A stretch of DNA of 64,000 bases from Candidatus Hydrogenedentota bacterium (GCA_020849535.1 JADLGB010000142.1:2688-66687); one strand, 5' to 3'. Positions 8,096 to 64,000 are shown, counted from the stretch's first letter. Made by a program: numbers and translations. Notes: generated by a model not told the origin, from the sequence alone.

Positions 8096-8325
8096 GACAG
8101 GCGATGGGGTTTTGCCCCACATGCGCTTGTTTTTCCGGCCGAGCTGTCCGATCCGTCGGATGTCCCGACGAAGACACAGGCGAGGGCGCCTGCGCCACAT
8201 GCGCTTGCTTTGCCTCGCGCTGTTCTTCTTCTCTTCCAGTCTTTGGTTTACCCATAGGCCTCAATGATTCTAAGCCAACGCAGAATGAAAGACAGTCGTG
8301 CGGCACAGGCGCCCTCGCCTGTGTC
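8096..8325. repeat. palindromic repeat cluster, family A (GACACAGGCGAGGGCGCCTG core)
   Basis: There is a degenerate copy at 8096..8126, a forward copy at 8173..8204 (GACACAGGCGAGGGCGCCTGCGCCACATGCGC) and an inverted copy at 8298..8325 (GTGCGGCACAGGCGCCCTCGCCTGTGTC). The same arrangement recurs at 39145..39289. Confidence 0.8.
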
Positions 8326-8448
8326 TTGAATGCTTTGATGCGCCGCTTGAACGTCGATAGGTTGCGCCGAAGCAGACGGTGCACTATAGTGTGCGCCGCC
8401 GTTCGGTACGAGCCAAACTCGCTGCTTGCATCCCTTTGGAGGATCCAC

Positions 8449-10949: not shown

Positions 10950-12488
10950 ATGCACTTTGGATCTACTCAACTGTTGGCAGCATGTTTGCTTGTTCAGGGA
11001 CTAATGCCAGGTGCTTGGCCTCAAGAAGTTCTCAAGCCGAATTTCGCTGAACTAGAAGCGCGTTGGGAATCTGCACGCCAGACGATCGGGCTGCCCGGCA
11101 TGGCCATCGCAGTGGTCAAGGATGACAACGTATCATACGAGAGAGGCTTCGGATATCGCGATCTCGACTCGAAGGCACCATTCACTGCGAACACGGCATC
11201 CTACATCGCCTCCGTCACCAAGACCTTCGTGACATTTGCCGTAATGCAGCAAGTAGACGCTGGCAGAGTGGACCTCGATAGGCCCGTGAAATCATACCTG
11301 CCGAGATTCCAGCTTGCCGATCAGGAACTTACCCAGCGCATTACGGTGCGGGATTTGCTCTGCCATCGCTTTGGGTTGTCCAATTGGCCCATCACCTTCG
11401 CCGAAGCGTACACAGGCATTCTGAACGACGACTTCTTCTACCGAGAGCTTTCCAGGACCGATGTGAAAGGGTCCTGGGCTTACAGCAATTTGCACTTCAC
11501 GCTGTTAGGGCGTCTTGTCGAAGCGGTAACCGGCCAATCCTGGCAACACTACCTTCAGGAGCATGTGTTCCTACCGGCCGTGATGGATCACACCACCGCG
11601 CGGGCCAGCGAGCTGTACGCCATCGCCGATCACGCCACGCCCTATATCTGGAGGGACGGCGTATGGCGGGCAAGCTCTTTTCGCAAGGCCGATAGCACCA
11701 TGCACGCAGCGGGGGGTATCGGCTCGTCAGCCCACGACCTGGCGCTATGGATCCTGCTGCACCTGAATTCGGGAGCTCTCGAGGACAGGCGCCTTCTTAG
11801 CGACGCGGCTGTGACGCAGATTCTGACTGCGCAGGTCAAGCCGAAAAGCCGTTACTTCATGTTCGGCCGCAAAGAAATGGGGCTTGGGTGGTATCTTGGG
11901 GATTACAAAGACGATCTCCTTGTACATCACTTTGGTAGTTACGCGGGCGCCCACGCCCACGTCTCGTTCATGCCTGAGCACAAGCTGGGCGTGGCAGTTG
12001 TCACTAATTCCGACGAAGACATGGCTATGCTTGTGCACCTCATGGCGGCCGATGTCTATGACGCGTATCTCGGGCGTACGCCAAGCAGAGACCTGGGCCG
12101 TTTCGTCAGGAAAATGAAGCGGGGACGTGAAATGGCCAATAGGAAGATGAGGGAACTGCCGGCACATACCACCGCCTTGGCATTGCCAAAATCCTGTGAC
12201 GCCTACACGGGGACCTACCTCAGCGAATCGTGGGGGATTCTCGAAATATCTCGTGATGGCGACGGCCTTGCAGGACATGACGGCAACTTCCCCCTATCAT
12301 TCTATCAGGATGACCGCGGGGACGTTGTTGCAGACACACCCCTTGGAAACTTCCAGGTTGAGTTCATCGATGGAACTGAAGGCGGCATCGCCGGGATTCA
12401 CATTGTCATGAGCGGTGAAGCGACCATGTCCTTCTATAGGTGCCTGGGCGGGCCAAACACAGCCACAAAACGAAAGAGTGCTGAATGA
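10950..12488 (+). CDS. secreted serine hydrolase of the beta-lactamase/esterase (class C-related) family
   Basis: It has a signal peptide, with GAGGAG upstream of the ATG. The SxxK motif is ASVTKTF within a typical EstB/AmpC-like context (GFGYRD...TANTASYIASVTK). Confidence 0.8.
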   Translation: MHFGSTQLLAACLLVQGLMPGAWPQEVLKPNFAELEARWESARQTIGLPGMAIAVVKDDNVSYERGFGYRDLDSKAPFTANTASYIASVTKTFVTFAVMQQVDAGRVDLDRPVKSYLPRFQLADQELTQRITVRDLLCHRFGLSNWPITFAEAYTGILNDDFFYRELSRTDVKGSWAYSNLHFTLLGRLVEAVTGQSWQHYLQEHVFLPAVMDHTTARASELYAIADHATPYIWRDGVWRASSFRKADSTMHAAGGIGSSAHDLALWILLHLNSGALEDRRLLSDAAVTQILTAQVKPKSRYFMFGRKEMGLGWYLGDYKDDLLVHHFGSYAGAHAHVSFMPEHKLGVAVVTNSDEDMAMLVHLMAADVYDAYLGRTPSRDLGRFVRKMKRGREMANRKMRELPAHTTALALPKSCDAYTGTYLSESWGILEISRDGDGLAGHDGNFPLSFYQDDRGDVVADTPLGNFQVEFIDGTEGGIAGIHIVMSGEATMSFYRCLGGPNTATKRKSAE

Positions 12489-32444: not shown

Positions 32445-33428
32445 CTAACCCAAACCATAGTGCCCGATCTGGCGGGGGATCCCGTAATTGTGGTCCTTAT
32501 CGTCGATCACGGGGAATTCCGTGGGGTACTTGATGAACTCGACGTGGCCGTCCATGTACAGGATGTTGCAGCCCCCGGGAATGTGGTTGAACACCACGCC
32601 GCCCGCCGCCGCGCCAGCGTCGCCGAAACTTCCATAGGTGTCAAACATCACGACCAGATCGCTCTGCGCCTTCGCCCCCGCAGCCGGATTGTTGATGTCG
32701 GTCACCGCGAACCGCTCAACGCCCTCCTTCAAGCGAACCGCTTTGTCGCCCCCGGCGTACCCTGTGCCCAGGATCGCCGTCCACGCCAGCTTCGTGGCGA
32801 CAGAGAGGTCCTGGTCCCAATCCTTGGGCGTAACCGGCATGATGACCGGCGCCGTACCCTGAATCGTGTTCGCGGGATACACCGCCCCCGAAGCGGGCGT
32901 GGTGCCTGTGGCATTCCACATGCCGTAGAACTCGTCTACATTGGTAATCGCGAACCCATGGTACCAATACGAGCGCCCAATGTACGCGGCGAAGAAGTAC
33001 TGCTCGCTCAGGTCGTCCCCGTTTGCCCGCGCGGCCTCGACATGCCCGTCAATCGAGCCCGAGGGCAGACGGTCCGCGACCATGGCGCCCGCGCCATCCG
33101 CTTCGGTATCTGACGGACACTTCGACACCGCGAGGTCCGTCAGATACTCAGGATAAACCTCAAACGGATCCGGCGCGGCGAACACCGGTACGCCGCCGGG
33201 ATTGGCAAACGGCGCCACCGGCGGAAATTCATCCCGGTTCTCGCCAGCGTACATCTTGTAGATGATCCCGTACTGCTTCAGATTGCTCGCGCACGACGCG
33301 CGGCGCGCGGCCTCACGCGCCCGCGCCAACGCCGGCAACAGGATTGCCGCGAGGATGCCGATGATCGCAATGACCACCAGCAATTCGATCAACGTGAACC
33401 CTTCTGCAAACTTCTTTGACACGTGCAT
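32445..33428 (-). CDS. DUF1559 / H-X9-DG-type protein with prepilin-type N-terminal cleavage/methylation domain
   Basis: The N-terminus is [43 protein letters not shown] and the C-terminal motif is [25 protein letters not shown] lies upstream of the ATG. Confidence 0.9.
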
Positions 33429-33452: not shown

Positions 33453-33479
33453 GTATTACGAATCGCAGAATCGTAATAC
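33453..33479. promoter_or_regulatory. inverted repeat GTATTACGA-N9-TCGTAATAC in the 5' region of the DUF1559 gene
   Basis: It has perfect 9-bp arms (33453..33461 / 33471..33479), 25-50 nt upstream of the start codon at 33428. It shares the ATTAC/GTAAT half-site with the dyads in front of blaI. Confidence 0.45.
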
Positions 33480-33649
33480 TATCGGCCCCCAATGTCAAGT
33501 AACCTGTGCCCGATGGGCTGACAGGCGAGGGCACCTGTCCCACAAGTCTTTGTTCGTCCGCGCTGGTCCGTGCTTGTCCGTGGAACTGGTCTTTGCCCTG
33601 CTCCTGCGTGCCTTGCCAGGAAATTGTCCCACCCCCCCCTTGACTTTTG

Positions 33650-33686
33650 ATTACAGATGTAATATCTTATGAATTACACTTGTAAT
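33650..33686 (+). promoter_or_regulatory. two BlaI/MecI-type operator dyads (ATTACA-NN-TGTAAT) upstream of blaI
   Basis: Box 1 is ATTACAGATGTAAT (33650..33663) and box 2 is ATTACACTTGTAAT (33673..33686). A TTGACT -35-like hexamer lies at 33640..33645 and AT-rich -10 candidates are overlapped by box 1. The RBS GGAGG is at 33691..33695. Confidence 0.6.
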
Positions 33687-33701
33687 CCAAGGAGGCCGCC
33701 C

Positions 33702-34076
33702 ATGCCGAAAGTCCCCCAGATCTCCGAGGCCGAATGGGAAGTCATGCGCGTCTTGTGGGCGCGTGCGCCGCAGACCGCCAACGAGGTGTGTGCCGCGCTC
33801 GCGGACTCGACCACGTGGAGTCCGCGCACGATCAAGACCCTCCTGAACCGGCTGGTCAACAAAGGCGCGTTGAAATACAAGCCGCAGGGCCGCGCATACC
33901 ACTACCTGCCCGCCGTGAGCGAAAGCGCGTGTGTCCGCGCGGCGAGTAGGAGTTTTCTCAAGCGTGTATTCGGCGGCGCGCTGACGCCCATGCTTGCCCA
34001 TTTCCTCGAAGAAGAAAAGCTGAGTGCGGATGAGATCGCGGAGCTGAGGTCGATGCTCGACGAGCGGAGGGATTAG
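33702..34076 (+). CDS. blaI: BlaI/MecI/CopY-family transcriptional repressor
   Basis: Start moved to ATG 33702. The N-terminus PQISEAEWEVMRVLW...TANEVCAAL...WSPRTIKTLLNRLVNKGAL is the penicillinase-repressor winged helix. The stop lies 2 nt before the blaR1-like ATG. Confidence 0.9.
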   Translation: MPKVPQISEAEWEVMRVLWARAPQTANEVCAALADSTTWSPRTIKTLLNRLVNKGALKYKPQGRAYHYLPAVSESACVRAASRSFLKRVFGGALTPMLAHFLEEEKLSADEIAELRSMLDERRD

Positions 34077-34078
34077 CC

Positions 34079-37000
34079 ATGTCTACGTTCCTCTCAGGGC
34101 TTACGTCGGCGTTTGATGCCGTCATCCAAACGACGCTACAGGCGACGGTCCTGGCCGCGCTGATCCTCATCTTGCAGCGGCTGCTGCGCAAACGCCTCAC
34201 GCCGCGCTGGCACTACGCGTTGTGGCTGTTGGTGCTGGCGCGATTGTTCTTGCCATGGACCCCTGAAAGCCCCACCAGCCTCTTCAACTATGTCCGCACG
34301 GAACAGGCATCAACTACCCAGTTGCTGCTGGCGATCCCTGACATTGAGTACATGTCATTTGATGGGCCACCTGAGGTGAGCGCCATGCCGCCGCTACCGG
34401 ACCGGGCAGTCGAAATCACGGACTCCACGCCCGCTATCGGCCTCTCGTGGAACGATGGGCTGCGCCTGGGTTGGCTGGGCGTCGCGGCGATCCTCTTCCT
34501 GTACGTGTGCGCGGTGAACGGTTCGCTGTGGTGGCGCGTGCGGCGCGAACCTGCCATCGACGACGGCCCGGCCGCTTTCGAGTTCGCGTCGTGCAAGGAA
34601 GTGATGGGGGTTCGCGATGCGATCCGCCTCGTGCGCACGAGCCGCGTCTCCACGCCTGCCCTGCTCGGCCTGCTGCGTCCACGCCTGCTCCTGCCCGAAT
34701 CGATGGAGCGCGCGTTGTCACGCGAAGAGCTGCGCCATGTGTTCTTGCACGAACTCGCCCACTACCGCCGCGGCGATCTCCTCGTGAACTGGCTGATGGT
34801 CGCCTGTAACATCGTCCACTGGTTCAACCCCGCGCTCTGGTACGCCTTTCACCGCATGCGCGCCGATCGCGAACTCGCCTGCGACGCCCTCGCCATGAGC
34901 TACATCGCGCCGGAGGACACGTCTTCCTACGGCCGCACCCTGCTGCGCCTGCTCGAACACGTCGCCCGCCCGCGCCCTTTGCCCGGCCTCGTTGGCGTCC
35001 TCGAACGCAAATCGCACCTGAAGAAGCGCATACGCGGCATCGCCGGCTTCAAACCCGGCTCCTATCGATGGTCGGTCTTGGCCGTCGTGCTGATCGCTGT
35101 GTTGAGCGCCGTCGCGTTGACCAATGCGTCATCGAAGGAAGCGGCGGAAGGAATGCCAGCGTCTTCGCTCGCACCGGATGACAATGCTCCCGAACCGCTT
35201 GTGAGTACTATCGGTGTCGTCGAGACCGATAGCCAGGACAAGTCTCCAACGCAGCTTTCGGACCTTGGCGCCCTGCTCACGGAGGATCAAACGCGCATCG
35301 AACCGATTGGGGATCCTTCGTCACATGAGCCGTTCGACCCCAGCGGCCAAGGCGAGAATGTGGCTACGGTCAATTCGGATGCGGCCTCGACGCATACCGG
35401 TGAACTGGACGCACTCGTTGAGAACACCGGATACCGAAACGAGACGGCCGAAGACGCGCACGATGCGAAGCCCGAAAGTGAGGCGGCGTTACCCTATCCT
35501 CCCGTTCAGATCGATTTCGGAGAGGGAAACACGTTGACGGCCGATTCTGCCCGGCTGGACATGGCCACGTTAGAACTGGAGCTCGTGGGGACCATCTTTC
35601 TCGACAAGCACTCGGGGTCTGATCTTCGAGTCAGTAAGGGCACGGCTTCACTGACACTGGATGGACCTCAGAAAGGCGCCCTGCGTGATATCAAGGGCGA
35701 AGATGTCGAGATGTTGGAGGACCTTTCTCCAGTAACTCCCGATGAGACGAAGGTGCTCAAAAGTCGTGACGAGAGCGAGCCACACGGGGTCTACATTCGG
35801 CACGGGGACGCCACGTTCATCGCCGATACGATGCTTCTCGATATGGAGTCGAGCGAGATCAAGCTGGCCGGACATATTCAGTTCAGCTCCGATACCGTTC
35901 GCGAAGGCCGCGCCGGCGAGGTGCGCCTCAACTTCCTTACGGGCAAAACAGAGATGGCAGGCCTGGTCGCTGAAAGTATAGAGCGGGAGGGTTCACGAGA
36001 GCCTCGACAGGCAAGCCCCGGCGCACTCTACACCTTGTCGGAGTCCGAGCGAATTCGTGAGGGTCTTCCGAAGCCGCAAATAAACGTCCTTGTGCCCCCT
36101 TCGGATCAGAACCCACGCGGGTATGCACTGATCAATTCCGAGAAGGTCTACGTTGGGGACAGGATTCCTGAGACTGGAGATGCGCCCACCCAGGCCAATT
36201 CGAAAGAAATTGTGCTTAAAGACGTCGATCTGGACGGCATCATTGTGGAGCGCGATGGGCGAGGGTACCGCGTCGGCACGCAAGGCTCCGTGTGGAGGCT
36301 GTTGCCGAAGGACAATGGTGCGGAGCACACCTCTGTATCCGCAAAGGAGGGTGATTCTGCAGCAGCCAGCCCGAAAGACTTGACTGGAGCAGGCGAGACA
36401 ATCGGTACGGATCAGGAGTTGTTCACGATCGAGTTTCAATCGTTCCGCCTATCTCGAAAGGATTTGGATAGCGTAATCGAGGATTGGGTTGAGTTGCCGG
36501 AAATCGAGAGATTGTACGGTGAATCGCGAGTCTTCTCAGTGCCTTCGTCATTGGTTCGTCCGGTCGAAGCTGTCACAGGCGCAACGCGGTTGGGAGGACA
36601 AATCTGTTGCGTACCGTGTGGGGCGCTGGAGAAGTATGGTGTGACCATTAGCGATGGGGAACCTGGGTTTGCCTGGGATCTCACGATTCCACGCAGGCAT
36701 GCCTCAGACAACGAACATCCCTCCGCTCCGATACAGATCAGAAACCCTATGGAATCCTTCATGCGAAACATTGAGCAAAAGTGCACCGACTACGGCGAGG
36801 CCGAAACCGCAATTACCCTCCCTGGGATAGAAACGGGTCCAGGCGGCAGGATGCTACTTGAGGTGCTCTGGCGAACAAAGGACCTCGAGTTCGGTGATAC
36901 CAAGTACCACGGGGTCTTCGCAAAGTTCCCCGTTCGGTTCGGTGAATGGACCGCAATCACCTTCCCCAAGACCCGCATGCAGCACTATCTCGTCTTTGCC

Positions 37001-39142
37001 CGCGTAACCGAAGGCAGGGCCGGTTTTGACGCCGCAGCGGCAGTCGCTTCATCCATGAAGAACGCGTCTGAGCGCTCCGCCGAATCCCCGGCGCTTCCGA
37101 GTCCCGACGTGACAGCGAAGCTGGATAGTCCGATCTCACTCGAGTTCGAGGGCGAGCATCTCACCGCGATCACGGCATTCATGGCTTCCTACTTAGGATT
37201 GTCTATCGAGCTGGACAGCAAGGTTATTGCGCCGAAAGGTAGTACGCCCGCCGAGAGCGCCGCGTACGCGACAAATGGCATCGTGCCGTACGTGAAGTTG
37301 GCGGACGTTCCATTCAAAGACGCTTTGAAGGCCCTCCTCCGTCCGCTGGGTCTTGCCTACGAGATGCGCGGCAATACGGTGTACATCTCGACCCCCGATC
37401 GCTTGTCCGCGCAGGAAGCTGTTGACGAATCCCAGGAGCGCCCGAAGGTGGAGGACGTGAAAGTCTCCGTCACGTTTCCCGAAAACACGACGCTCATGGA
37501 GGCCGCCGCCAAACTGGTTGACGCGGCCGATGTGAACATCGTAGTCGACCGCCGCGCCGTCCATCCCGAAGGTGGCAATGGCTCCGACCCAACGGAATGG
37601 ATGGTGCCACCGCGCGAGATCAAAGGCGCGCTCCTCATCGACGTGCTCTGGGAAATGCTCGAGCCCCTGGGCCTGACCTTCGCAGTGCAACCCGGTTTCA
37701 TCTGGATCAGCACCCCGGATCGCATCGCCACCGAGACTTTCGAAGTACTCGAAACGCGGCGCTATCCTCTGGAACTCATCCGCGAGCTGAACGGCAATGC
37801 GGCCAGCCGCGCGGAGTCTCTGGCTGACATACGGCGCATGGTTCGTGTCACTGAACCGGACTCGCTGAAGACGCTGTCATTCGCGCGCATCATTGAAGAA
37901 GATGGCGTACTCGAAGTCCGCAGCGCGCCCACCCATTTGGATCAGTTGGAGCAAAACCTCCTCCTTTACGAGAGCGCGAATTCGACACAGACTGCTGAAA
38001 ACGCTGGTGCTGAGGCACATGAAGATGCGGCTGCCGGGACCGGGGACGAGACTTCACTCGAGCACCATACAGCGAGCCCGGTAACAAGCGCCACTATCGA
38101 CTCGAGTCTCCAGCAGGCGTGCAACGAACTGCTCCGCGAATTGGAGGGTTCGATCGTGGTATTGAATGCGGACTCCGGCGCGGTGCTGGCCATGGCAGGC
38201 TCAGCGGCGGCTGAGTCCAACGATATCCTCCATCCCGCCTACCAAGAGGCCTATCCGCCGGGGTCCTTGTTCAAGGTGCTGCTGGCGATCGCGGCCTTGG
38301 AGGAGGGGATCATCACAGAAGAGACGACTTTCGGGTGCAGCGGGAAATTCTATCTACCGGGTGTTGCGCGGCCGTGGCGCTGCTGGCGCTTAATGTACGG
38401 CGGCCACGGCGGGGTGAACGTCGTCGATGCGTTGGCGTACAACTGCGATGTGTTCTTCTACAACGTCGCGCTGAAACTGGGACCGGAGAAGATCAAGGAG
38501 TGGTCAAGCAGACTCGGGCTTGGCGTGCCTACGGGGATCGATCTGCCGGGAGAGGCCGTCGGACTCATCCCCGACCCCACGTGGAAGAAAGAAGCCGCAT
38601 CAGCCGCCGGCAAGACTGAAACTTGGGAAAAGAACTGGTACCCCGGCGAGACCGTCAATCTGGGCATCGGCCAAGGTGCGGTGAGCACAACCATGCTACA
38701 GAATACCGCCCTGATGATGTCCATCCTGAACGGTGGACGTCGCGCGCAGCCCTTCACACAAGGAGACGTGCTCCCCACGCTTTCCGAACCCCTGGTGAGC
38801 GAAGAGACTCTGCGCATCGTTCAAGCGGGGTTGCGCAAGTGCGTCGAGAGGGACAAACCCCCGCCAACGGGCACGGGAAAAGAGGCCAGAATTGAAGGAT
38901 TCGACATCCTCGGCAAGACGGGCACCGCGCAGGTCGTCCAAACCTTGAAGGCGAAACACTACTCAAATGAAGAAGACATGCCCTACGAACAACGCGACCA
39001 CGCGCTGTTCATCGCGGGGGTGATGGACCGGTCACCGCGTATCGCCGTGGGTGTGTTCATCAAACACGGCCTGCATGGCAGCTCGACCGCGGCGCCTATT
39101 GCCCGCGCCGTGATTGCGGAGTTCTACGGAGGCGGCACCTGA
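34079..39142 (+). CDS. giant BlaR1-family M56 metalloprotease / signal transducer with C-terminal PBP2-type transpeptidase (penicillin-binding) domain
   Basis: 1687 aa. The N-terminal M56 module has TM helices and the zinc motif HELAH (34748..34762). A further TM helix (WSVLAVVLIAVLSAVAL) is followed by about 1000 aa of extracytoplasmic sequence. The last ~345 aa (from ~38105) are a transpeptidase domain with SLFK (Ser 38264..38266), NCD (38441..38449) and KTGT (38915..). This domain is strongly similar to mrdA at 62079.. Confidence 0.9.
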   Translation: MSTFLSGLTSAFDAVIQTTLQATVLAALILILQRLLRKRLTPRWHYALWLLVLARLFLPWTPESPTSLFNYVRTEQASTTQLLLAIPDIEYMSFDGPPEVSAMPPLPDRAVEITDSTPAIGLSWNDGLRLGWLGVAAILFLYVCAVNGSLWWRVRREPAIDDGPAAFEFASCKEVMGVRDAIRLVRTSRVSTPALLGLLRPRLLLPESMERALSREELRHVFLHELAHYRRGDLLVNWLMVACNIVHWFNPALWYAFHRMRADRELACDALAMSYIAPEDTSSYGRTLLRLLEHVARPRPLPGLVGVLERKSHLKKRIRGIAGFKPGSYRWSVLAVVLIAVLSAVALTNASSKEAAEGMPASSLAPDDNAPEPLVSTIGVVETDSQDKSPTQLSDLGALLTEDQTRIEPIGDPSSHEPFDPSGQGENVATVNSDAASTHTGELDALVENTGYRNETAEDAHDAKPESEAALPYPPVQIDFGEGNTLTADSARLDMATLELELVGTIFLDKHSGSDLRVSKGTASLTLDGPQKGALRDIKGEDVEMLEDLSPVTPDETKVLKSRDESEPHGVYIRHGDATFIADTMLLDMESSEIKLAGHIQFSSDTVREGRAGEVRLNFLTGKTEMAGLVAESIEREGSREPRQASPGALYTLSESERIREGLPKPQINVLVPPSDQNPRGYALINSEKVYVGDRIPETGDAPTQANSKEIVLKDVDLDGIIVERDGRGYRVGTQGSVWRLLPKDNGAEHTSVSAKEGDSAAASPKDLTGAGETIGTDQELFTIEFQSFRLSRKDLDSVIEDWVELPEIERLYGESRVFSVPSSLVRPVEAVTGATRLGGQICCVPCGALEKYGVTISDGEPGFAWDLTIPRRHASDNEHPSAPIQIRNPMESFMRNIEQKCTDYGEAETAITLPGIETGPGGRMLLEVLWRTKDLEFGDTKYHGVFAKFPVRFGEWTAITFPKTRMQHYLVFARVTEGRAGFDAAAAVASSMKNASERSAESPALPSPDVTAKLDSPISLEFEGEHLTAITAFMASYLGLSIELDSKVIAPKGSTPAESAAYATNGIVPYVKLADVPFKDALKALLRPLGLAYEMRGNTVYISTPDRLSAQEAVDESQERPKVEDVKVSVTFPENTTLMEAAAKLVDAADVNIVVDRRAVHPEGGNGSDPTEWMVPPREIKGALLIDVLWEMLEPLGLTFAVQPGFIWISTPDRIATETFEVLETRRYPLELIRELNGNAASRAESLADIRRMVRVTEPDSLKTLSFARIIEEDGVLEVRSAPTHLDQLEQNLLLYESANSTQTAENAGAEAHEDAAAGTGDETSLEHHTASPVTSATIDSSLQQACNELLRELEGSIVVLNADSGAVLAMAGSAAAESNDILHPAYQEAYPPGSLFKVLLAIAALEEGIITEETTFGCSGKFYLPGVARPWRCWRLMYGGHGGVNVVDALAYNCDVFFYNVALKLGPEKIKEWSSRLGLGVPTGIDLPGEAVGLIPDPTWKKEAASAAGKTETWEKNWYPGETVNLGIGQGAVSTTMLQNTALMMSILNGGRRAQPFTQGDVLPTLSEPLVSEETLRIVQAGLRKCVERDKPPPTGTGKEARIEGFDILGKTGTAQVVQTLKAKHYSNEEDMPYEQRDHALFIAGVMDRSPRIAVGVFIKHGLHGSSTAAPIARAVIAEFYGGGT

Positions 39143-39144
39143 AA

Positions 39145-39289
39145 GAGACCGGCGGGGGTGCCTGCCCCACATGTCTTTCTCCAGCGGTATGTACGCCGCG
39201 ATCCTTGAAGCACTGGGGCAGACTTGGGCAGAAGAGAGAAAGACAGAGGCCGGGCAAGCGCGTGTGGCACAGGCGCCCTCGCCTGTGTC
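39145..39289. repeat. inverted pair of family A palindromic repeats immediately downstream of the blaR1-like gene
   Basis: The forward copy is 39145..39175 (GAGACCGGCGGGGGTGCCTGCCCCACATGTC). The inverted copy is 39258..39289 (GCGCGTGTGGCACAGGCGCCCTCGCCTGTGTC). The architecture matches 8096..8325. Confidence 0.8.
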
Positions 39290-39416
39290 TTTGTCTGCCA
39301 TCTGCCTGAGTTTGAAATCCATTTCGCTGTCTTCGCGCGAAACCATAGATGGCCCTGCAAGAGCCAAGGTCCTGGCGCCGCACCTTCAGCGCTCAAGAAC
39401 AAGAGCTTATCGGATA

Positions 39417-39470
39417 CCCAGGGTGGCGCTTCGCTCTGCCCTGGGCTGATATGGTTTCGGCCCTTCAGAC
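39417..39470. repeat. single family C unit
   Basis: It comprises the CCCAGGGTGGCGCTTCGCTCTGCCCTGGG hairpin plus GGCCCTTCAGAC. Compare 24177..24241. Confidence 0.65.
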
Positions 39471-39557
39471 TTCAAGAGTGGGGGGCCACATTCTCGTTGG
39501 ATTCCCTCTTCATTCTCTTCCTTAACGTCTTGGCGAGAGGTTCTTCTTCGCACGCCC

Positions 39558-42338: not shown

Positions 42339-43592
42339 ATGCTTTGCCTCCTTGTGGCGGCGTGCCTGAGCGCGCCGGACATCGTCTTTCTTTCCGTAGA
42401 CACGTTGCGGGCGGACCGCCTTGGGTGTTACGGGTACGAATTCGACACCTCGCCCAATGTGGACCGCTTGGCGGAGGGCGCGCTGCTCTTCGAGGATTGC
42501 GTCACGGAAGTGCCGCTGACCTCGCCCTCTTTTGGCGCCATGATGACGTCCCGGTTCCCGCGCATGAACGGTGCCGCGCGCAACGGTCTTCCGTTGCCCG
42601 ACGACATCCCCACGCTCGCCGAAGAACTGAAGAAGGCTGGCTATCAGACCTTCTGTGTGCAGAGCAATTGGACACTGAAAGCGCCGCTGTGCGGGCTCGC
42701 GCGCGGATTCGACACCTATGAGGACGGCTTCAACAAGAAGCGCTGGGGCGTGTTGAAGTCGGAGCGCTACGCGGATGAGGTCACCCGCATCGCCCTGGAT
42801 CTTCTGGCGAAACGCGACCCGGCCAAGCCGCTGTTCTGCTGGATCCACTACTCGGATCCGCACGCGCCGTACCGTTTTCACAGCCGCTTCAATCCCGGCG
42901 ATCGCACCCTGCGCAAGCTGGATGAAACCGGGCAGACGCGGGTGCGGTATGACTCGGAAGTCGCCTACACGGATTCGCACATCGGTCAGATTCTGGCGGC
43001 CGTGCCGCAGGAAGCCGCGGTCGTGTTTGTCGCGGACCATGGCGAGAGTCTCTACGAGCACGATTACCTCGGCCACGGACGCCGCGTGTACCAGCACGAA
43101 GTGCGCATCCCCCTGATCATTCGCGGACCCGGCGTGAGCGCGGGAAGATCCCAAACGCCGGCGCGCGGTATTGATATTGCCCCGACGATCTTGGGCCTCG
43201 CCGGGCTTCCCAAGGTGGAAGGAATGCTGGGCGCCGACCTTTTGAAGGATTCGCTGCCCATGGATCGCGTGCGCGTGATTGAAACGTACGGCGGGGCGGT
43301 TCCCCGCATTCCAGGCGCCAAGGCGCTGATGGCCTCGCGGCCGCCGATGCGGCAGGCCGTCCTCGCGGAGCGCTGGAAGCTGATCCTGGACGGAAGCCGG
43401 CCCGAGCTGTTCGACCTCAGTCAGGACCCTTCCGAGTTGACGGACCTGGCCCAGAACCAGCCTAGTCACACGGAGAACCTGACCAAGCTCATTGCGGATT
43501 GGGATCAGGCGGTCTCCAAGCTCGACGCGACCGAAGCGGAACTTAACCAGGACGATATCGAGGCGTTAGAGAGCCTGGGCTACGTGGAGTGA
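42339..43592 (+). CDS. sulfatase-like hydrolase/transferase (alkaline phosphatase superfamily)
   Basis: The metal-site motif is VFLSVDTLRADRLGCYGY. The nucleophile region reads PLTSPSFGAMMTSRFP, with Thr where sulfatases have Cys/Ser. Later motifs are HYSDPHAPY and FVADHGE. Confidence 0.8.
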   Translation: MLCLLVAACLSAPDIVFLSVDTLRADRLGCYGYEFDTSPNVDRLAEGALLFEDCVTEVPLTSPSFGAMMTSRFPRMNGAARNGLPLPDDIPTLAEELKKAGYQTFCVQSNWTLKAPLCGLARGFDTYEDGFNKKRWGVLKSERYADEVTRIALDLLAKRDPAKPLFCWIHYSDPHAPYRFHSRFNPGDRTLRKLDETGQTRVRYDSEVAYTDSHIGQILAAVPQEAAVVFVADHGESLYEHDYLGHGRRVYQHEVRIPLIIRGPGVSAGRSQTPARGIDIAPTILGLAGLPKVEGMLGADLLKDSLPMDRVRVIETYGGAVPRIPGAKALMASRPPMRQAVLAERWKLILDGSRPELFDLSQDPSELTDLAQNQPSHTENLTKLIADWDQAVSKLDATEAELNQDDIEALESLGYVE

Positions 43593-44684
43593 GTCGCCGT
43601 TGAACAGCGGCAGCGGATCCACGGGGACATCGTTCTTGCGCACCTCAAAGTGAAGATGGGGCCCGGTCGCGCGGCCGGTGCTTCCCACCTGGGCGATGGC
43701 CGTATCGGTCGTCACCACATCACCCGCCTTCACCAGATTCTTCGACGCATGCCCATACACCGTGTGCATGCCGTTCGGATGCTCGACAATCACCATCTTC
43801 CCGTAACCGGGCCGCCACCCGCTGAACGTCACCTTGCCCGGCATGGAGGGATAAATCTCGGTTCCCGCCTTCGCGGCGATGTCCAGTCCCTGGTGGAACT
43901 GCGGACGGCCCGTGAAGGGGTCGGTTCGCATGCCGTATTTCGAGGTGAGACGCGCCGGTCCCCCGAGCACTTTGGACCACGGGCTGCCCGGCAAGATGAC
44001 CGTGTCGGAGAATGAGCCCGGTTCCAGGATCGATTGCATGAGGCCGGTGATATCGACGCCGCGGCTGGCCGCCGCGGGCTCGACGACGGTGTCCTGTGAA
44101 AGCGCGCGGGCCGCGGACGTGCCGTGGGGAACGATTGGAGGCGCCGACGCCCGGGCCCTACTCGTCGCCATCGGCAGATTCATCTTTCCGTACCCAACGC
44201 GCCGGGGTTCATTGGGCATCTTCAAGCCGGCCTTCTCCTGAGGCATTGCGGGTCCGCCCTTCTGGGCGGGCATAGAGATCTGCTCCGGCTCCGCGCCCTT
44301 TGGGAGGGGCGCCGCGCGAAAAGCGCTCGACAATTGGCTCAGGGTGGGTGCGGGGCGTTCCGTCGTCAGGGCGGCCAAGTCCAACTTCTGACCCACCGAC
44401 AGGCGGTCAGGATTCTTGAGCCCGGCTTCCTTCGCAAGGCGCGTGACGGCGGAGTGGATTTCCGCCTTGGTCGGCTTCTTGCCCTGAGCACTGAGGTGGT
44501 CACGGCAGATCTGCCACAGGTTCTCGCCCTCAGTGACGGTGTGGGTGACGGTCTTGCGGCTCGAGGAATCGCTCCGCACCTTCTCGATGAATTCGTGAAA
44601 AGCGGCAGGGGGCGTGGTCGCTATCGGCAGCAGCCCCGGAACCGGTTGCGCGCCCTGTTCGCCTGTGATTGGTACGATCCGCAT
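43566..44684 (-). CDS. LysM-domain M23 family metallopeptidase
   Basis: It has a LysM-like segment (TVTEGENLWQICRDHL...LSVGQKLDL). The C-terminal M23 motifs are HQGLDIAAKAGTEIY, VIVEHPNGMHTVYGH and GSTGRATGPHLHFEV. Its 3' end overlaps the convergent sulfatase-like gene by 27 nt. Confidence 0.85.
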   Translation of the reverse strand: MRIVPITGEQGAQPVPGLLPIATTPPAAFHEFIEKVRSDSSSRKTVTHTVTEGENLWQICRDHLSAQGKKPTKAEIHSAVTRLAKEAGLKNPDRLSVGQKLDLAALTTERPAPTLSQLSSAFRAAPLPKGAEPEQISMPAQKGGPAMPQEKAGLKMPNEPRRVGYGKMNLPMATSRARASAPPIVPHGTSAARALSQDTVVEPAAASRGVDITGLMQSILEPGSFSDTVILPGSPWSKVLGGPARLTSKYGMRTDPFTGRPQFHQGLDIAAKAGTEIYPSMPGKVTFSGWRPGYGKMVIVEHPNGMHTVYGHASKNLVKAGDVVTTDTAIAQVGSTGRATGPHLHFEVRKNDVPVDPLPLFNGDSLHVAQAL

Positions 44685-56858: not shown

Positions 56859-57503
56859 ATGAGCACTCATCCGATCCGTTCCACTAACGTATATGCCGCC
56901 GTCTTGCTGTTGGCTATTCTTGCCGGCGCCTGCGCGACCTCTGCGCGCACCGCATCACACGCCGATCTCGTGGAACTGGTGGACGTCATCCCGGACATCC
57001 TGCTCGATATCAAATACGCCACCACGGACAACTTCACGGGCAAGGTGGTGTATCCTGCCGCGCGATGCTTTCTCGTCCGCGATGCCGCGGAGGCGCTAGG
57101 TGACGTGCAAGAGGACCTTCGCCCCCTTGGGTATCGGCTCAAGGTGTTTGACGGTTACAGGCCGCTCTCCGTGCAGCGAATCTTCTGGAGCATCTTGCCC
57201 GACCCAGCTTATGTGGCGGACCCGGCCAAGGGGTCGCGCCACAATCGCGGGTACGCGGTGGATCTGACGCTCACAGACCTGCAGGGCCATGAAGTAGCGA
57301 TGCCTTCTGGCTACGATGACTTCAGCGAGCGAGCACATCGCGATTACCTCGCGCTCCCCGCGGAGGCCATTGGGCACCGCGAAATCCTGGAACAGATCAT
57401 GGTCCGCCACGGCTTCATCCCCTTGCCCACCGAGTGGTGGCACTTCGACTATCGGGGGTATGAGAACAAACCCAATCTGGATATTCCATTCGACGAACTG
57501 TAA
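56859..57503 (+). CDS. VanX/DdpX-type D-alanyl-D-alanine dipeptidase (M15D) with N-terminal export signal
   Basis: The motifs are IKYATTDNFTGKVVY, FDGYRPLSVQ, SRHNRGYAVDL (zinc ligands) and EWWHFDY. The N-terminus VYAAVLLLAILAGACATSA is hydrophobic. GAGGAAG lies upstream of the ATG. Confidence 0.85.
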   Translation: MSTHPIRSTNVYAAVLLLAILAGACATSARTASHADLVELVDVIPDILLDIKYATTDNFTGKVVYPAARCFLVRDAAEALGDVQEDLRPLGYRLKVFDGYRPLSVQRIFWSILPDPAYVADPAKGSRHNRGYAVDLTLTDLQGHEVAMPSGYDDFSERAHRDYLALPAEAIGHREILEQIMVRHGFIPLPTEWWHFDYRGYENKPNLDIPFDEL

Positions 57504-60903: not shown

Positions 60904-62082
60904 TCAGGCGAAAAACCCTTTTCTCACATGGACACTCAACACCGTGCCCACGCACATCATAGTCGTAACGTAGAAAGAGCCGCCGTAGCTCAGGAAAGGC
61001 AGCGGCAGCCCCGTGACGGGCAGCAGATTCAGGGTGATCGCGATGTTCACAAGCACATGGAACGCGATCACGCTGACGCTGCCCAGGGCAAGCAGGCCCC
61101 CGGCAAGGTCGGGGCAGTCCCGGGCGAGGGATAGACCCCGCAACAGGAACAGGGCATAGAGCCCGATGAGGATCACGCCGCCGACGAAGCCCATCTCCTC
61201 CGCGAAGAGGGCGAAAATGAAGTCCGTGTGGTACACCGGCAGGAAGCGCATGTGGGTCTGGGTGCCCTTGCCGAAACCCTTGCCCCACATCTGGCCGCTG
61301 CCCACGGCGATCTTGGTCTGGGTGATTTGATATCCAGCGTCCTTGGCGAAGTTGGGGTCCGCCTCCGGGTGGAAGAAGGACACGATGCGGGTCTTCTGGT
61401 GATCCTTGAGGGGCAGATGGTCCAGATTGAAGTACGCCAGCGGCGCGATGGTGCAACCGGCCAACACGATGGCCAGGATGTGCCGGCGGCGGCAACCGGC
61501 GGCGAACAGCATTACAAAGACCAGCGGAGATGCGACAATGGCGGTGCCCAAGTCGCCCTGGATCAGGATCAACAGGATCAGAACCCCCGCGATGGCCAAG
61601 GCCCCAATGAAATAGGCGAGCTTGTAGATGCGCTCCTGGTAGCGTGATAGATACCAGGCCAGCGTGTAGATGAGCGCCACCTTGCTGAACTCCGAGGGCT
61701 GGAGTTGCACGCCAAGTACACGGAGCCAGTGCTGGCCGCCCATGGCCGTGAACCCGATGAGCGGTACCGCGATCAGGAGCAAGACCGCCAGCCCATAGAA
61801 GAACGGCGCCATGGACACAAGCGCCCGGTAATCCATACATGCGATCAGCACCGCCATCAGGATTCCGAGGGTGCAGAAGAGGATCTGCTTCACGTAGTAC
61901 TTTGAAAAAAACGCCACATCCGCCGCGGCGCTTTGGCTGGCGCTATACAGCGTGAAGAGACCGGCGATCGACAAGGCCAGTGTGAGGCCCACCAACAGCC
62001 AGTCCAGCCGACGCAGGTTACGGTAGTTGAACGTGTGGATGTGGGCTTCCAGCAGGTTGAGATCGCGCTCGATCCGGCTCAT
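60904..62082 (-). CDS. rodA: rod shape-determining SEDS protein RodA
   Basis: It belongs to the FtsW/RodA/SpoVE family, with about 10 TM segments. The motifs are QPSEFSKV, HTDFIFA and PLPFLSYGGS. It has an ATGA overlap with mrdA. Confidence 0.9.
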   Translation of the reverse strand: MSRIERDLNLLEAHIHTFNYRNLRRLDWLLVGLTLALSIAGLFTLYSASQSAAADVAFFSKYYVKQILFCTLGILMAVLIACMDYRALVSMAPFFYGLAVLLLIAVPLIGFTAMGGQHWLRVLGVQLQPSEFSKVALIYTLAWYLSRYQERIYKLAYFIGALAIAGVLILLILIQGDLGTAIVASPLVFVMLFAAGCRRRHILAIVLAGCTIAPLAYFNLDHLPLKDHQKTRIVSFFHPEADPNFAKDAGYQITQTKIAVGSGQMWGKGFGKGTQTHMRFLPVYHTDFIFALFAEEMGFVGGVILIGLYALFLLRGLSLARDCPDLAGGLLALGSVSVIAFHVLVNIAITLNLLPVTGLPLPFLSYGGSFYVTTMMCVGTVLSVHVRKGFFA

Positions 62083-64000
62083 TGGCCGACCTCCCGGCGC
62101 GCAATCGTCAGCGGCTGCGCCACGCTGGCCGAGCCTGGCTCATCCGGCCGGTTCAAGTAGAAGTACTCGTATATTTGCCGGGCGATTGGCGCCGCCGTCG
62201 AGCTTCCGTGCAGGCCATGCTCGACGATCACACTCACCGCGATGCGCGGCGAGCGGTCCGTGACACCCGAGATAAACAGCGCATGGTCGCGCAACTCGTA
62301 GGGGATATCTTCCTCGTTGGCGTAGTGCTTGACGTGCTGCAATCCGGCCACCTGGGCGGTACCCGTTTTGCCCAGGATGTCGAGGCCCTCGATCTTGGCC
62401 TCCTTTCCCGTGCCGGTCGGGGCTGGCTTGTCGCGCGCGACGCACTTGCGCATGCCCTCCGTCACGATCCGCAGCGTCTCTTCGCTGAAGAGCGGTTCGC
62501 TGACCTGAGGCCCGAGTTCCATGTTGAGATACGGACGTACGCGGCGCCCACCGTTGAGGACGGATGCCATCAGCACGGCGTTCTGCAGGGGCGTGGTGAC
62601 TACCTCGCCTTGGCCGATGGACATGTTGACCGTCTCGCCGGGGTACCACTTCTGATACCAGGGCTCGGTCTTGCCCGCCTTTAGAGCGAGCATCTTCTTG
62701 CGCTCGGGATCGGGGATAAGCCCGGTGACTTCACCAGGCAGGTCGATCCCGGTCTGAACGCCGAGGCCCAGTTTTGAGGACCATGCCTTGATGCGCTCAG
62801 CCCCCAACTTGAGCCCGACATTGTAAAAGTAGACGTCGCACGAGTACGCCAGCGCATCCACGACCGCTACTCCCCCATGTCCGCCATACTTTAGGCGCCA
62901 GCAACGCCAAGGCCGGGAAACCCCGGGGAGATAGAACTTCCCGCTGCATCCGAAAGTCGTGTGCTCGTTGATGACTCCTTCTTCCAATCCTGCAATCGCG
63001 AGCAGAACTTTGAACACGGAGCCGGGCGGATAGTGAAACTCATGGGCACGGCACAGCATGGGCTTGGTTTTGTCGCCGAGTGTCGCTGTGACCAACTGCC
63101 CCCTGTTGGGGCTGTTTGTCACGAAGATGCTGGGGTCATAGCCGGGGCTGCTCGCCATGGAGAGCACCTCGCCGGTTTCCGCGTTCAACACCACGACTGC
63201 GCCCGTCAGACCCTCAAGCAACCTTTCACACTCGCGCTGCAGTCCAATATCGAGCGTGGTGAAGATCGACCCGCCAGGAACCGGGTCGATGCGTTCCTCG
63301 ACCTCTAGCTCGCGCCCTTTGCTGTCCATCTCCACATAGGCATTGCCGCGTTCGTCGGTTTTCAATTGGGGCACACTGCCATTATAACGGCTGACGATCA
63401 TCGCGCCGTCCACGCCCTTCAGAACGTCCTCGTACTGCATTTCCAAACCGGAGCGGCCCGTGACATCCCCCATGCTGTAGCGCGGCTTGAGCCTCTTCCA
63501 TTCGTCGAGATCGATTTCGTTCATCCAGCCCAGCAATTGTCCCGCCGTCTGATTGTAGTAATAGCGCCGTTGGGGACGGGCCACGGTATACACGCCCGGC
63601 AACGCGAAGGAGCGCTCCTCGACCAGCGTGAGTTCCGTGCGCGAGATGTCGCGCTTCACCGGGATTTGCTCCCACGGCGCTTTTCGTTGCTCGGCGTTGG
63701 CGATAGCGGCCAGAAGAGCATCCTTGTCGATCTGGATGATCTGATTCAGCGTTTCGATCACGCTCGCCGGGTCGTTGCACAAAGCGGGGACCAGGACGAG
63801 ATCGTTTGCCGCGCGGTTGTCGGCGAGAACGACGCGCTCGTCGCGGCCGAAGATCACGCCCCGCGGCGACTTGAGGGGCTCGTTCATGAGCCGGTTGTTC
63901 TCGGCCTGATCGGCGTACTGGGCGCCGTCTATGACCTGCAATTGCCACAGGCGCAAACACAACCCGGCCAAGGCCAGCAACAAGGCGAACGCCAGCCAGG
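62079..64000 (-). CDS. mrdA: penicillin-binding protein 2 (elongasome transpeptidase); 5' end lies beyond the window
   Basis: The frame stays open to position 64000 (WLAFALLLALAGLCLRLWQLQ is the TM anchor). It has a pedestal domain followed by a transpeptidase domain with SVFK, SCD and KTGTA. It lies upstream of rodA in the classic mrdAB arrangement. Confidence 0.9.
   Translation of the reverse strand, partial: WLAFALLLALAGLCLRLWQLQVIDGAQYADQAENNRLMNEPLKSPRGVIFGRDERVVLADNRAANDLVLVPALCNDPASVIETLNQIIQIDKDALLAAIANAEQRKAPWEQIPVKRDISRTELTLVEERSFALPGVYTVARPQRRYYYNQTAGQLLGWMNEIDLDEWKRLKPRYSMGDVTGRSGLEMQYEDVLKGVDGAMIVSRYNGSVPQLKTDERGNAYVEMDSKGRELEVEERIDPVPGGSIFTTLDIGLQRECERLLEGLTGAVVVLNAETGEVLSMASSPGYDPSIFVTNSPNRGQLVTATLGDKTKPMLCRAHEFHYPPGSVFKVLLAIAGLEEGVINEHTTFGCSGKFYLPGVSRPWRCWRLKYGGHGGVAVVDALAYSCDVYFYNVGLKLGAERIKAWSSKLGLGVQTGIDLPGEVTGLIPDPERKKMLALKAGKTEPWYQKWYPGETVNMSIGQGEVVTTPLQNAVLMASVLNGGRRVRPYLNMELGPQVSEPLFSEETLRIVTEGMRKCVARDKPAPTGTGKEAKIEGLDILGKTGTAQVAGLQHVKHYANEEDIPYELRDHALFISGVTDRSPRIAVSVIVEHGLHGSSTAAPIARQIYEYFYLNRPDEPGSASVAQPLTIARREVGQ

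Follow-up and report, generated by a model that had tools for sequence, protein, structure and literature searches.

The 64,000-nt stretch of DNA analysed here (Candidatus Hydrogenedentota bacterium, GCA_020849535.1 JADLGB010000142.1:2688-66687; hereafter the window) contains a blaI-family repressor gene and, directly behind it, a gene whose product joins a BlaR1-type M56 membrane protease to the transpeptidase (TP) domain of penicillin-binding protein 2 (PBP2). On balance, and with some caution, we favour the view that the locus is a two-gene operon of the blaI-blaR1 type, in which a TP domain taken from the PBP2 of the organism's own lineage serves as a target-mimic sensor of penicillin or peptidoglycan. 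With regard to its origin, the domain is an old copy of that PBP2, rather than the recent duplicate of the resident mrdA gene that a preliminary description of this DNA had proposed.

Domain organization of the M56-PBP2 fusion

The fusion protein is already on record as P0121, on a 140,965-bp contig, and its gene can be divided as follows.

34079..39142, + strand: M56-PBP2 fusion ORF, 1687 uninterrupted codons (M56 transducer, long periplasmic region, PBP2-type TP domain)
34121..35035, + strand: Peptidase_M56 (BlaR1-type) membrane zinc-protease domain, aa 15-319 (Pfam PF05569, E = 1e-61)
35150..36304, + strand: variable periplasmic region, aa 358-742, without homology to the same part of the orthologue P0122 (skipped by tblastn against its locus, L002)
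36305..37411, + strand: periplasmic region, aa 743-1111, ending in STN-like unit 1 (aa 1019-1109, 37133-37405)
37457-37726, + strand: STN-like unit 2, named by similarity to repeated units of P0124 and to unit 1 (26 % identity)
37739-37975, + strand: secretin-N1-like unit, named by similarity to repeated units of P0124
37976-38092, + strand: low-complexity linker preceding the TP domain
38093..39127, + strand: PBP2-derived TP domain, aa 1339-1683, with a 22-aa deletion relative to PBP2 near 38216

The zinc site of the protease, HELAH (aa 224, 34748-34762), is flanked by hydrophobic segments, one at aa 127-152 and the other at aa 331-350, the latter (35069-35128) being the last that hydropathy identifies in the protein. 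As no hydrophobic segment follows aa 350, residues 351-1687 should all lie on one side of the membrane, and by analogy with the topology of BlaR1 (PMC9834060) that side is probably the periplasm. The periplasmic part thus defined comprises some 1340 residues with the TP domain at its end, and is without the membrane anchor and pedestal of PBP2. A Pfam scan of aa 358-1340 returned nothing over threshold; the matches to STN (PF07660) were all sub-threshold, that of unit 1 scoring 24.8 bits against a cut-off of 28.4. By eye, the LTADSARLDMATLELELVGTIFLD and FIADTMLLDMESSEIKLAGHIQFS stretches at aa ~465-640 (window 35500-36000) resemble beta-jellyroll repeats of the LptA/OstA type, a region in which Pfam gives no match.

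The C-terminal domain, matched by Pfam Transpeptidase at aa 1357-1679 (E = 1e-51), is not of the kind found in known BlaR1 proteins. The NCBIfam model blaR1_generic aligns to the fusion over model positions 4-324 of 585 only (186 bits, cut-off 400), and no class-D-beta-lactamase-like sensor stands directly behind the last membrane helix; the matches of the C-terminal domain are to PBP2 models and structures. Among NCBIfam models it agrees best with TIGR03423 (pbp2_mrdA), aligned over model positions 297-591 with 289 bits, which is under the cut-off of 455. An AlphaFold2 model of the domain, built from a 36-sequence alignment, is of high confidence (pLDDT 93.4, pTM 0.93), and the top 50 Foldseek matches to it in the PDB are all class B penicillin-binding proteins (PBPs) or structures of their transpeptidase domains, with PBP2 first and a TMq of ~0.8; none of these 50 is a BlaR1/MecR1 sensor or an OXA enzyme. 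A phmmer search of the PDB likewise places PBP2/MrdA chains at the top (E = 1e-41 to 1e-33). By sequence and predicted fold, the domain belongs to the class B penicillin-binding (serine DD-peptidase) fold.

Of the motifs that characterize PBP2 (SxxK, SxN/D and KTG), the first and last are intact in the fusion, reading SLFK (aa 1396, 38264-38275) and KTGT (aa 1613, 38915-38926). The set is nonetheless incomplete, as SxD reads NCD (aa 1455, 38441-38449), with Asn in place of Ser. In an alignment of 40 TP domains this Ser is kept by all 36 free-standing PBP2s, whilst Asn occurs only in two M56 fusions, that of the window and P0210 (see below). Among 64 columns that are invariant in 21 PBP2s of the Hydrogenedentes clade, 55 are retained, including those of SxxK and KTG. 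Six of the nine changed columns fall in the SxPxYDP...NR segment around the 22-aa deletion, a segment that would adjoin the pedestal in PBP2, and the pedestal (PBP_dimer, PF03717) was sought in the fusion with Pfam and found to be missing. Comparison with the resident MrdA of the window by the Nei-Gojobori method gives a dN of 0.24 and, with a dS of ~1.5, a dN/dS of ~0.16, and the domain is thus under purifying selection.

Relationship to the resident PBP2 and age of the duplication

The window also contains a complete PBP2 gene, with which the TP domain was compared.

62079..63983, - strand: resident mrdA (PBP2, 634 aa, pedestal and TP; Pfam PBP_dimer and Transpeptidase; TIGR03423 535 bits, cut-off 455)
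60904..62082, - strand: rodA, directly downstream of mrdA (Pfam FTSW_RODA_SPOVE, E = 2.4e-90)

Resident MrdA carries the motifs SVFK, SCD and KTGT and, because rodA adjoins its gene, is identified as the elongasome PBP2; within the window rodA follows this copy only, and none lies beside the fusion gene. BLASTP of the two whole proteins yields one alignment (fusion aa 1339-1683, MrdA aa 243-609; 238 identities, E = 2e-159), corresponding to an identity of 65 % when all 367 columns are counted and of 69 % when only the 345 aligned pairs are. The similarity begins at the first TP strand (T-L/I-D, MrdA aa 243) and covers the whole TP domain, rather than short motifs. Within it, the fusion lacks 22 aa in a single gap, and with them the conserved SPxYDPxxF stretch (the 'SPGYDPSIF...' segment of MrdA). 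This gap had been overlooked in the preliminary description, the coordinates of which also need adjustment, with the homologous DNA extending over 38093..39127 (+) and 62157..63257 (-) rather than 62079..63120. Its count of 91 identities in 109 positions is exact (fusion aa 1392-1500, 38252..38578; MrdA aa 318-426, 63032..62706), as is that of 32 in 38 near the end, although the similarity does not run to the C-terminus of MrdA, the last 25 aa of which are without a counterpart in the fusion. An insertion, CSGKFYLPG..RPWRCWR, had been described as unusual and common to the pair. The pattern C.G...RCW..GHG is however general to PBP2s, and the extra L(K/M)YGG is found also in P0001, P0002, P0008 and P0017, all of other Hydrogenedentes, such that the insertion marks the Hydrogenedentes clade and not the fusion-MrdA pair.

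At the DNA level the two TP domains are far apart. Nucleotide identity is 68.6 %, falling to 48 % at third codon positions; pS is 0.65 and the dS of ~1.5 is saturated, with a low dS approached in no sliding window. The longest exact word common to the two is 17 nt, and there is thus no sign of recent gene conversion. Furthermore, resident MrdA resembles orthologues from other organisms more than it does the fusion domain, being 79 and 73 % identical to the metagenomic MrdA fragments P0001 and P0002, respectively, and 68 % identical to the fusion. The rates of the two copies are uneven, with Tajima's relative-rate test counting 51 changes unique to the fusion and 15 to MrdA (p = 1e-5), and maximum-likelihood (ML) branch lengths of 0.34 and 0.10 substitutions per site, respectively; on these figures, the fusion copy has evolved approximately three times faster. 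The duplication is about as deep as the radiation that separates resident MrdA from orthologues 73-79 % identical to it, and its dS exceeds at least ~4-fold that of the divergence from L002, the closest relative of the locus known (dS 0.32-0.44); the fusion itself predates that divergence. The proposal that the duplication is recent is refuted by this evidence.

Phylogenies place the source of the domain close to home. In neighbour-joining (NJ) trees of 27 and 41 TP domains, using Poisson or gamma distances, the fusion falls inside the Hydrogenedentes PBP2 clade, and not among PBP2s of distant lineages, with a group of the fusion, resident MrdA and P0001 recovered in 79-83 % of bootstrap replicates. 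Exclusive sisterhood of the fusion and resident MrdA appears in only 2-9 % of replicates, whilst NJ (Poisson or alpha 1.5) pairs MrdA with P0001 and leaves the fusion outside in 70-83 %. ML analysis (a home-made implementation with a Gonnet-derived matrix plus gamma, assessed by RELL over 289 sites) divides its support between the fusion as sister to MrdA (0.34), outside MrdA and P0001 (0.31), and outside P0002 as well (0.29), and quartet site counts for fusion, MrdA, P0001 and P0002 are 4/5/5. The branching order of these four is not separated because the internal branches measure only 0.025-0.045 substitutions per site. Hence that part of the preliminary description which derived the domain from an own-lineage PBP2 holds, as TIGR03423 and the group of ~80 % with MrdA and P0001 indicate, whilst its naming of the resident gene in particular as the source finds no such agreement among the trees. 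Silent sites lean towards the resident copy: identity at four-fold sites is 0.435 for fusion and MrdA and ~0.33 for all other pairs, pS is lowest for this pair among the four sequences compared (0.65 against 0.70-0.76), and a codon-permutation test finds a marginal excess of identical codons between them (z = 1.8, p = 0.04). Taken as a whole, the sequence comparisons indicate that the TP domain was copied from a PBP2 of this same lineage, roughly when these MrdA lineages radiated.

Two other accounts of its origin were weighed against this. The first, in which the 3′ half of resident mrdA was recently duplicated within this genome and joined directly to a gene of the blaR1 family, could draw on the 83 % identity of the best 109 residues, on the silent-site and codon signals just described, and on an ML placement that is compatible with sisterhood; given the saturated dS, the absence of any longer common word, the closeness of MrdA to foreign orthologues and a deletion scar which dates the fusion before the L002 split (dS ~0.35), it is very improbable. 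Somewhat less so, yet still quite unlikely, is that the module was gained horizontally from a closely related Hydrogenedentes organism with a P0001-like mrdA. The fusion domain is equidistant from resident MrdA (68.1 %) and P0001 (68.4 %), NJ places it outside that pair, and the gene is a mosaic whose segments diverge very differently from its orthologue. The threefold longer branch of the fusion is, however, sufficient alone to account for the equal distances. Against horizontal gain there are also the lean of the silent sites, a GC3 (0.76) which agrees with that of the host copy (0.78 for the MrdA TP domain), and the observation that three other fusions each match a PBP2 of their own lineage.

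A related locus that has lost the TP module

The relative mentioned above, P0122, is a 1241-aa protein encoded at locus L002 of a Hydrogenedentes metagenome-assembled genome (MAG), GCA_020847495.1. It is 86 % identical to the fusion over aa 1-357 and ends behind the first STN-like unit, without a TP module. The blaI products (Penicillinase_R) of the two loci are 99 % identical, L002 1-1677 corresponds to window 33453-35139 with 88.5 % nucleotide identity, and L002 3839-4337 to window 36914-37412, the last 500 nt of the aa 743-1111 region, with 85.6 %. With their genes separated by a dS of 0.32-0.44, the two loci are orthologous. The stretch between these blocks behaves differently: fusion aa 358-742 (35150-36304) and L002 1690-3210 are non-homologous, P0122 having CarboxypepD_reg domains in this position, and aa 743-945 are saturated relative to L002 although their flanks show a dS of ~0.35. 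The fusion gene therefore has the appearance of a mosaic, with a sensor region that looks like a shuffled cassette.

The following features mark the point at which the two loci part.

37402..37412, + strand: left copy, CTTGTCCGCGC, of an 11-nt imperfect direct repeat; site of the relative's deletion in the three-way alignment
37413..39108, + strand: segment of 1696 bp lost in L002 (STN-like unit 2, secretin-N1-like unit, linker and nearly all of the TP domain)
39098..39142, + strand: right repeat copy, ATTGCCCGCGC (39098-39108), with the last 13 codons and stop, which survive out of frame in L002
39252..39477, no strand assigned: 3′ flank common to L002, with a REP-like dispersed repeat (39252-39305) followed by a unique element of ~100 nt (39375-39477); collinear

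At the break, L002 follows the left side of the window through CTTGTCCGCGC and then continues with the sequence 3′ of ATTGCCCGCGC, leaving a scar at L002 4326-4374. Beyond the junction 33 of 41 nt agree by blastn, and L002 4333-4374 translates to RAVMKRFCSGGST and a stop, the window counterpart being RAVIAEFYGGGT and a stop. As 1696 bp is not a multiple of three, P0122 meets a stop codon three codons past the junction. Retention of the last 13 TP codons and the stop in L002 implies that the TP module was present in this gene in the common ancestor, and the relative lost it by deletion between the 11-nt imperfect direct repeats. Insertion of the module in the window lineage was also considered, and is ruled out by the scar, which shows a deletion in the relative.

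The same remnant bears on whether the gene might be an artefact, that is, a chimeric contig in which a blaR1-like gene was joined to an mrdA fragment from a related population. The full-length protein derives from one contig, with no second copy in protein databases or JGI metagenomes: a full-length word-indexed search for orthologues returned P0121 itself and the N-terminal match P0122 only; HMMER with the 576-aa module against 1.84 billion representatives gave a full-length match to the fusion alone; and a scan of genome and metagenome contigs (JGI included) with the same module found nothing related. Yet the orthologous locus of an independent MAG still contains the final 13 codons and stop of the TP domain, with the 11-nt repeat as the point of junction, and its 3′ flank is collinear with that of the window. 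In addition, the 1687 codons are in frame, the join lies exactly at the TP boundary behind a linker, and the TP domain carries sensor-specific changes found in no PBP2 compared. A chimera is thus scarcely credible, in agreement with the preliminary description, which had likewise discounted assembly collapse.

The REP-like intergenic repeat (core ~GTGGCACAGGCGCCCTCGCC) occurs in both orientations, at window 8167-8232, 8297-8327, 33521-33544 and 39252-39305, and at L002 69-96, 4427-4473, 7220-7248 and 7336-7389. It brackets the blaI-blaR1 operon on both sides in the window as well as in L002.

Other M56-PBP2 fusions

At least three further proteins combine an M56 domain with a PBP2-type TP domain, and in each case a Penicillinase_R (BlaI) gene lies directly upstream.

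P0210, 948 aa: M56, pedestal and TP; locus L003
P0242, 1515 aa: TP directly behind the membrane helix, then other domains
P0262, 810 aa: partial pedestal and TP; present in two assemblies

Their TP domains are 54 % (P0242), 40 % (P0262) and 30 % (P0210) identical to that of the window. In the TP tree, P0210 neighbours Verrucomicrobiota PBP2s and P0242 another Hydrogenedentes group, with a third group near PBP2s of the Desulfobacterota/Binatia type. As each fusion domain stands next to a different PBP2 lineage, capture of PBP2 by the M56 transducer has occurred repeatedly, and the match of all three to PBP2s of their own lineage suggests that local capture is the rule.

The state of the catalytic motifs varies within this set. 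P0210 reads STFK/NAD/SAG, having lost KTG, and P0387, a fragmentary relative of P0210 on a 2.4-kb JGI contig, reads GTFK/GAD/ETG, the nucleophile being lost as well. The motifs therefore decay stepwise in the Verrucomicrobiota-type fusion lineage, whilst free Verrucomicrobiota PBP2s keep S..K/SCD/KTG. Over all captured domains the drift comprises replacement of the SxD Ser by Asn on two occasions, whilst a single lineage has lost KTG or, going further, the nucleophile. We advance only tentatively the broader proposal that BlaI/BlaR1-type switches have captured a host PBP2 TP domain as their receptor at least four times independently (in two lineages of Hydrogenedentes, once in Verrucomicrobiota and once in another lineage), and that these domains then drifted towards non-catalytic binding to become target-mimic sensors. 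If true, such sensors would see what the elongasome PBP2 sees, be it PBP2-directed beta-lactams or the stem-peptide substrate, and repeated capture would amount to a second, convergent route to the sensing of beta-lactams or the cell wall, apart from the class-D-lactamase-like sensor of BlaR1/MecR1.

Regulatory context

Upstream of the fusion gene lie the second gene of the putative operon and its control region.

33640..33686, + strand: promoter/operator region, with a candidate -35 element TTGACT (33640-33645, predicted from sequence) and two BlaI-type dyads
33702..34076, + strand: blaI-family repressor gene, 124 aa, with ATG 33702 as the likely start behind AGGAGG (ORF listing from 33669)

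The blaI product matches the NCBIfam BlaI/MecI/CopY models (E = 1.8e-43) under their 'exception' and 'equivalog' cut-offs, which denotes family membership only, and its stop lies two bases 5′ of the fusion ATG. The putative operator dyads, ATTACAGATGTAAT (33650-33663) and ATTACACTTGTAAT (33673-33686), are 9 nt apart and sit between TTGACT and the ribosome-binding site. The pattern ATTACA-NN-TGTAAT occurs twice in the 64 kb, where 0.04 matches would be expected, both times upstream of blaI, and the double dyad is conserved at the same position in L002. TACA-NN-TGTA is the form of the BlaI/MecI operators of Bacillus and Staphylococcus. The spacer that matches is of 2 nt; a search for the operator form with a 4-nt spacer gave no match.

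Beyond these two loci, the full double dyad (ATTACA-NN-TGTAAT-N9-ATTACA-NN-TGTAAT) was found in 119 metagenome stretches (L004-L122), 60 of which hold a BlaI homologue and 46 an M56 gene within the same fetched stretch, the M56 products being 37-44 % identical to that of the window. It thus has the appearance of an operator shared across a large family of environmental BlaI/M56 systems. In none of the 119 loci does a PBP2-type TP domain follow the M56 gene, and the sole TP match (L101) is an ordinary mrdA distant from the dyad.

A further near-perfect palindrome, GTATTACGAATC-GCA-GAATCGTAATAC, lies at 33453-33479, 25 nt upstream of a divergent gene for a DUF1559/N-methyl pseudopilin-like protein (32445..33428, - strand), and may serve as a further operator, either of the same regulator or of a different one. 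The window also encodes a 512-aa protein of the PF00144 'Beta-lactamase' family (10950..12488, + strand; E = 7.7e-66), 23 kb from the sensor gene and without a nearby dyad, the family also taking in esterases and DD-peptidases. Two more of its genes concern the cell wall, and encode a VanX-like D-Ala-D-Ala dipeptidase (56859-57503, + strand; Peptidase_M15, E = 9e-38) and an M23/LysM peptidase (43566-44684, - strand).

Proposed function and alternatives

In the mechanism that we favour, the TP domain would mimic the true target of the antibiotic and, as a receptor that binds penicillin, form the ligand-binding end of a BlaR1-type switch. A beta-lactam would acylate Ser1396 of SLFK, with KTG intact, and Asn1455, in place of the SxD Ser, would disable transpeptidase turnover and so give a long-lived acyl form. 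The occupied state of the domain would then be relayed to the M56 protease and BlaI be cleaved; once BlaI had left the pair of ATTACA-NN-TGTAAT dyads that overlie the promoter of the operon itself, derepression of the operon would follow.

Several considerations weigh against this mechanism. The role of the fusion as a sensor is deduced from its architecture, and the full fusion protein is known from one contig only. Some 990 residues separate the last membrane helix from the TP domain, so that coupling must differ from the known case or be indirect; the sensor of Staphylococcus aureus BlaR1 sits directly on the membrane and is coupled via loop EL1 (PMC9834060). The exchange of Ser for Asn in SxD could also lower the rate of acylation, and it is not universal in M56-PBP2 fusions, with P0242 and P0262 keeping SCD/KTG. 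In these phyla this M56 family has undergone a huge expansion, its members bearing many C-terminal domains that are unrelated to one another, and it is therefore not generally concerned with beta-lactams, whilst in the 64-kb window no BlaI dyad was found at a beta-lactamase gene or other resistance gene.

The main rival keeps the same relay and changes the ligand, such that the TP domain would bind D-Ala-D-Ala stem peptides or muropeptides and report the status of the cell wall, or damage to it. The enzyme from which the domain descends naturally acts on the stem peptide, the substrate-binding motifs of the domain are retained, and the losses of KTG in P0210 and of the nucleophile in P0387 argue for acylation-free binding in some fusions; moreover, BlaIR-family systems without a beta-lactam role have been described (bioRxiv 10.64898/2026.08.03.742534; CenIR). 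In the window's protein, however, the Ser and Lys of SxxK and the whole of KTGT are kept, which is more than mere binding needs, and we regard this alternative as unlikely here. A greater departure would be that the domain is a working D,D-transpeptidase or carboxypeptidase on a BlaR1-like anchor, an auxiliary wall enzyme and not a sensor. Intact SxxK and KTG motifs, a confidently predicted fold and purifying selection (dN/dS ~0.16) would suit such an enzyme, but the SxD Ser that is invariant in free-standing PBP2s is Asn, the pedestal through which class B PBPs work with their SEDS partner is absent, the conserved SxPxYDP...NR segment is deleted or changed, and the gene is paired with blaI and its operators. 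An enzymatic role is improbable in the face of these features, and a target-mimic sensor of beta-lactams remains the reading that we favour.

If the domain is a sensor, the M56 chassis has given rise to the sensing of penicillin or the cell wall on more than one occasion, and the fusion would represent a natural decoy receptor derived from the target, with a specificity that should track that of PBP2. It would further suggest that uncultured Hydrogenedentes and Verrucomicrobiota meet, and answer, beta-lactams or wall damage in nature; the Hydrogenedentes host, and the other environmental phyla with such switches, are taken as Gram-negative. The deletion scar of L002, for its part, illustrates how fast such sensor ends are gained, swapped and lost.

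Comparison with known systems

The closest parallel is with BlaR1/MecR1 of S. aureus and Bacillus licheniformis, which likewise have an N-terminal four-helix M56 zinc protease with HExxH (PMC9834060). An outer domain of penicillin-binding fold with SxxK and KTG, an adjacent blaI-family gene and putative operator dyads of the TACA-NN-TGTA type over the operon promoter are also common to both. They differ in that the sensor of the canonical proteins, a relative of class D beta-lactamases, stands directly behind the last helix, whereas the corresponding domain of the fusion is a PBP2 TP domain ~990 residues from the membrane, behind STN-like units, and in that no regulated beta-lactamase or PBP2a gene lies near the fusion. 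Canonical BlaR1/MecR1 thus senses with a relative of a resistance enzyme, whilst the chassis in the window carries a copy of the drug's actual target. The combination 'M56 + PF00905' is the textbook BlaR1 architecture, and a 2025 survey lists it with sensor types not told apart (PMC12516126). The Pfam architecture 'Peptidase_M56 + Transpeptidase' conceals two unrelated kinds of sensor, and our search of the literature on BlaR1-type proteins found no description of one with a PBP2-derived TP sensor.

With regard to PBP2 (MrdA) itself, the fusion domain shares 69 % identity with the resident protein, the same fold, and SxxK and KTG, but has no N-terminal anchor, pedestal or rodA neighbour, carries Asn for the SxD Ser, and has the SxPxYDP segment deleted. 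P0242, P0262 and P0210 are similar in uniting M56 and a PBP2-type TP domain in one protein with blaI directly upstream, although the STN-like units of the window's fusion are found in none of them. The sensor-less, 'atypical' BlaR/BlaI systems (BlaR of Mycobacterium tuberculosis and M. abscessus, PvmSR of Pseudomonas aeruginosa, CenIR of Clostridioides difficile) also pair an M56 protein with a BlaI-family repressor, and PVC-group M56 proteins with PD40, TPR or CarboxypepD_reg ends also couple the M56 transducer to non-canonical sensor ends. Neither kind has a penicillin-binding fold, which the fusion in the window has re-acquired from a different source. PASTA-domain Ser/Thr kinases of the PknB/Stk1 type are receptors for the cell wall or beta-lactams whose extracellular module is likewise borrowed from a class B PBP. 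In those kinases the borrowed module is a small, non-catalytic PASTA repeat and the output a kinase, whereas the fusion described here borrows a whole catalytic TP domain, with a protease/repressor pair as its output.

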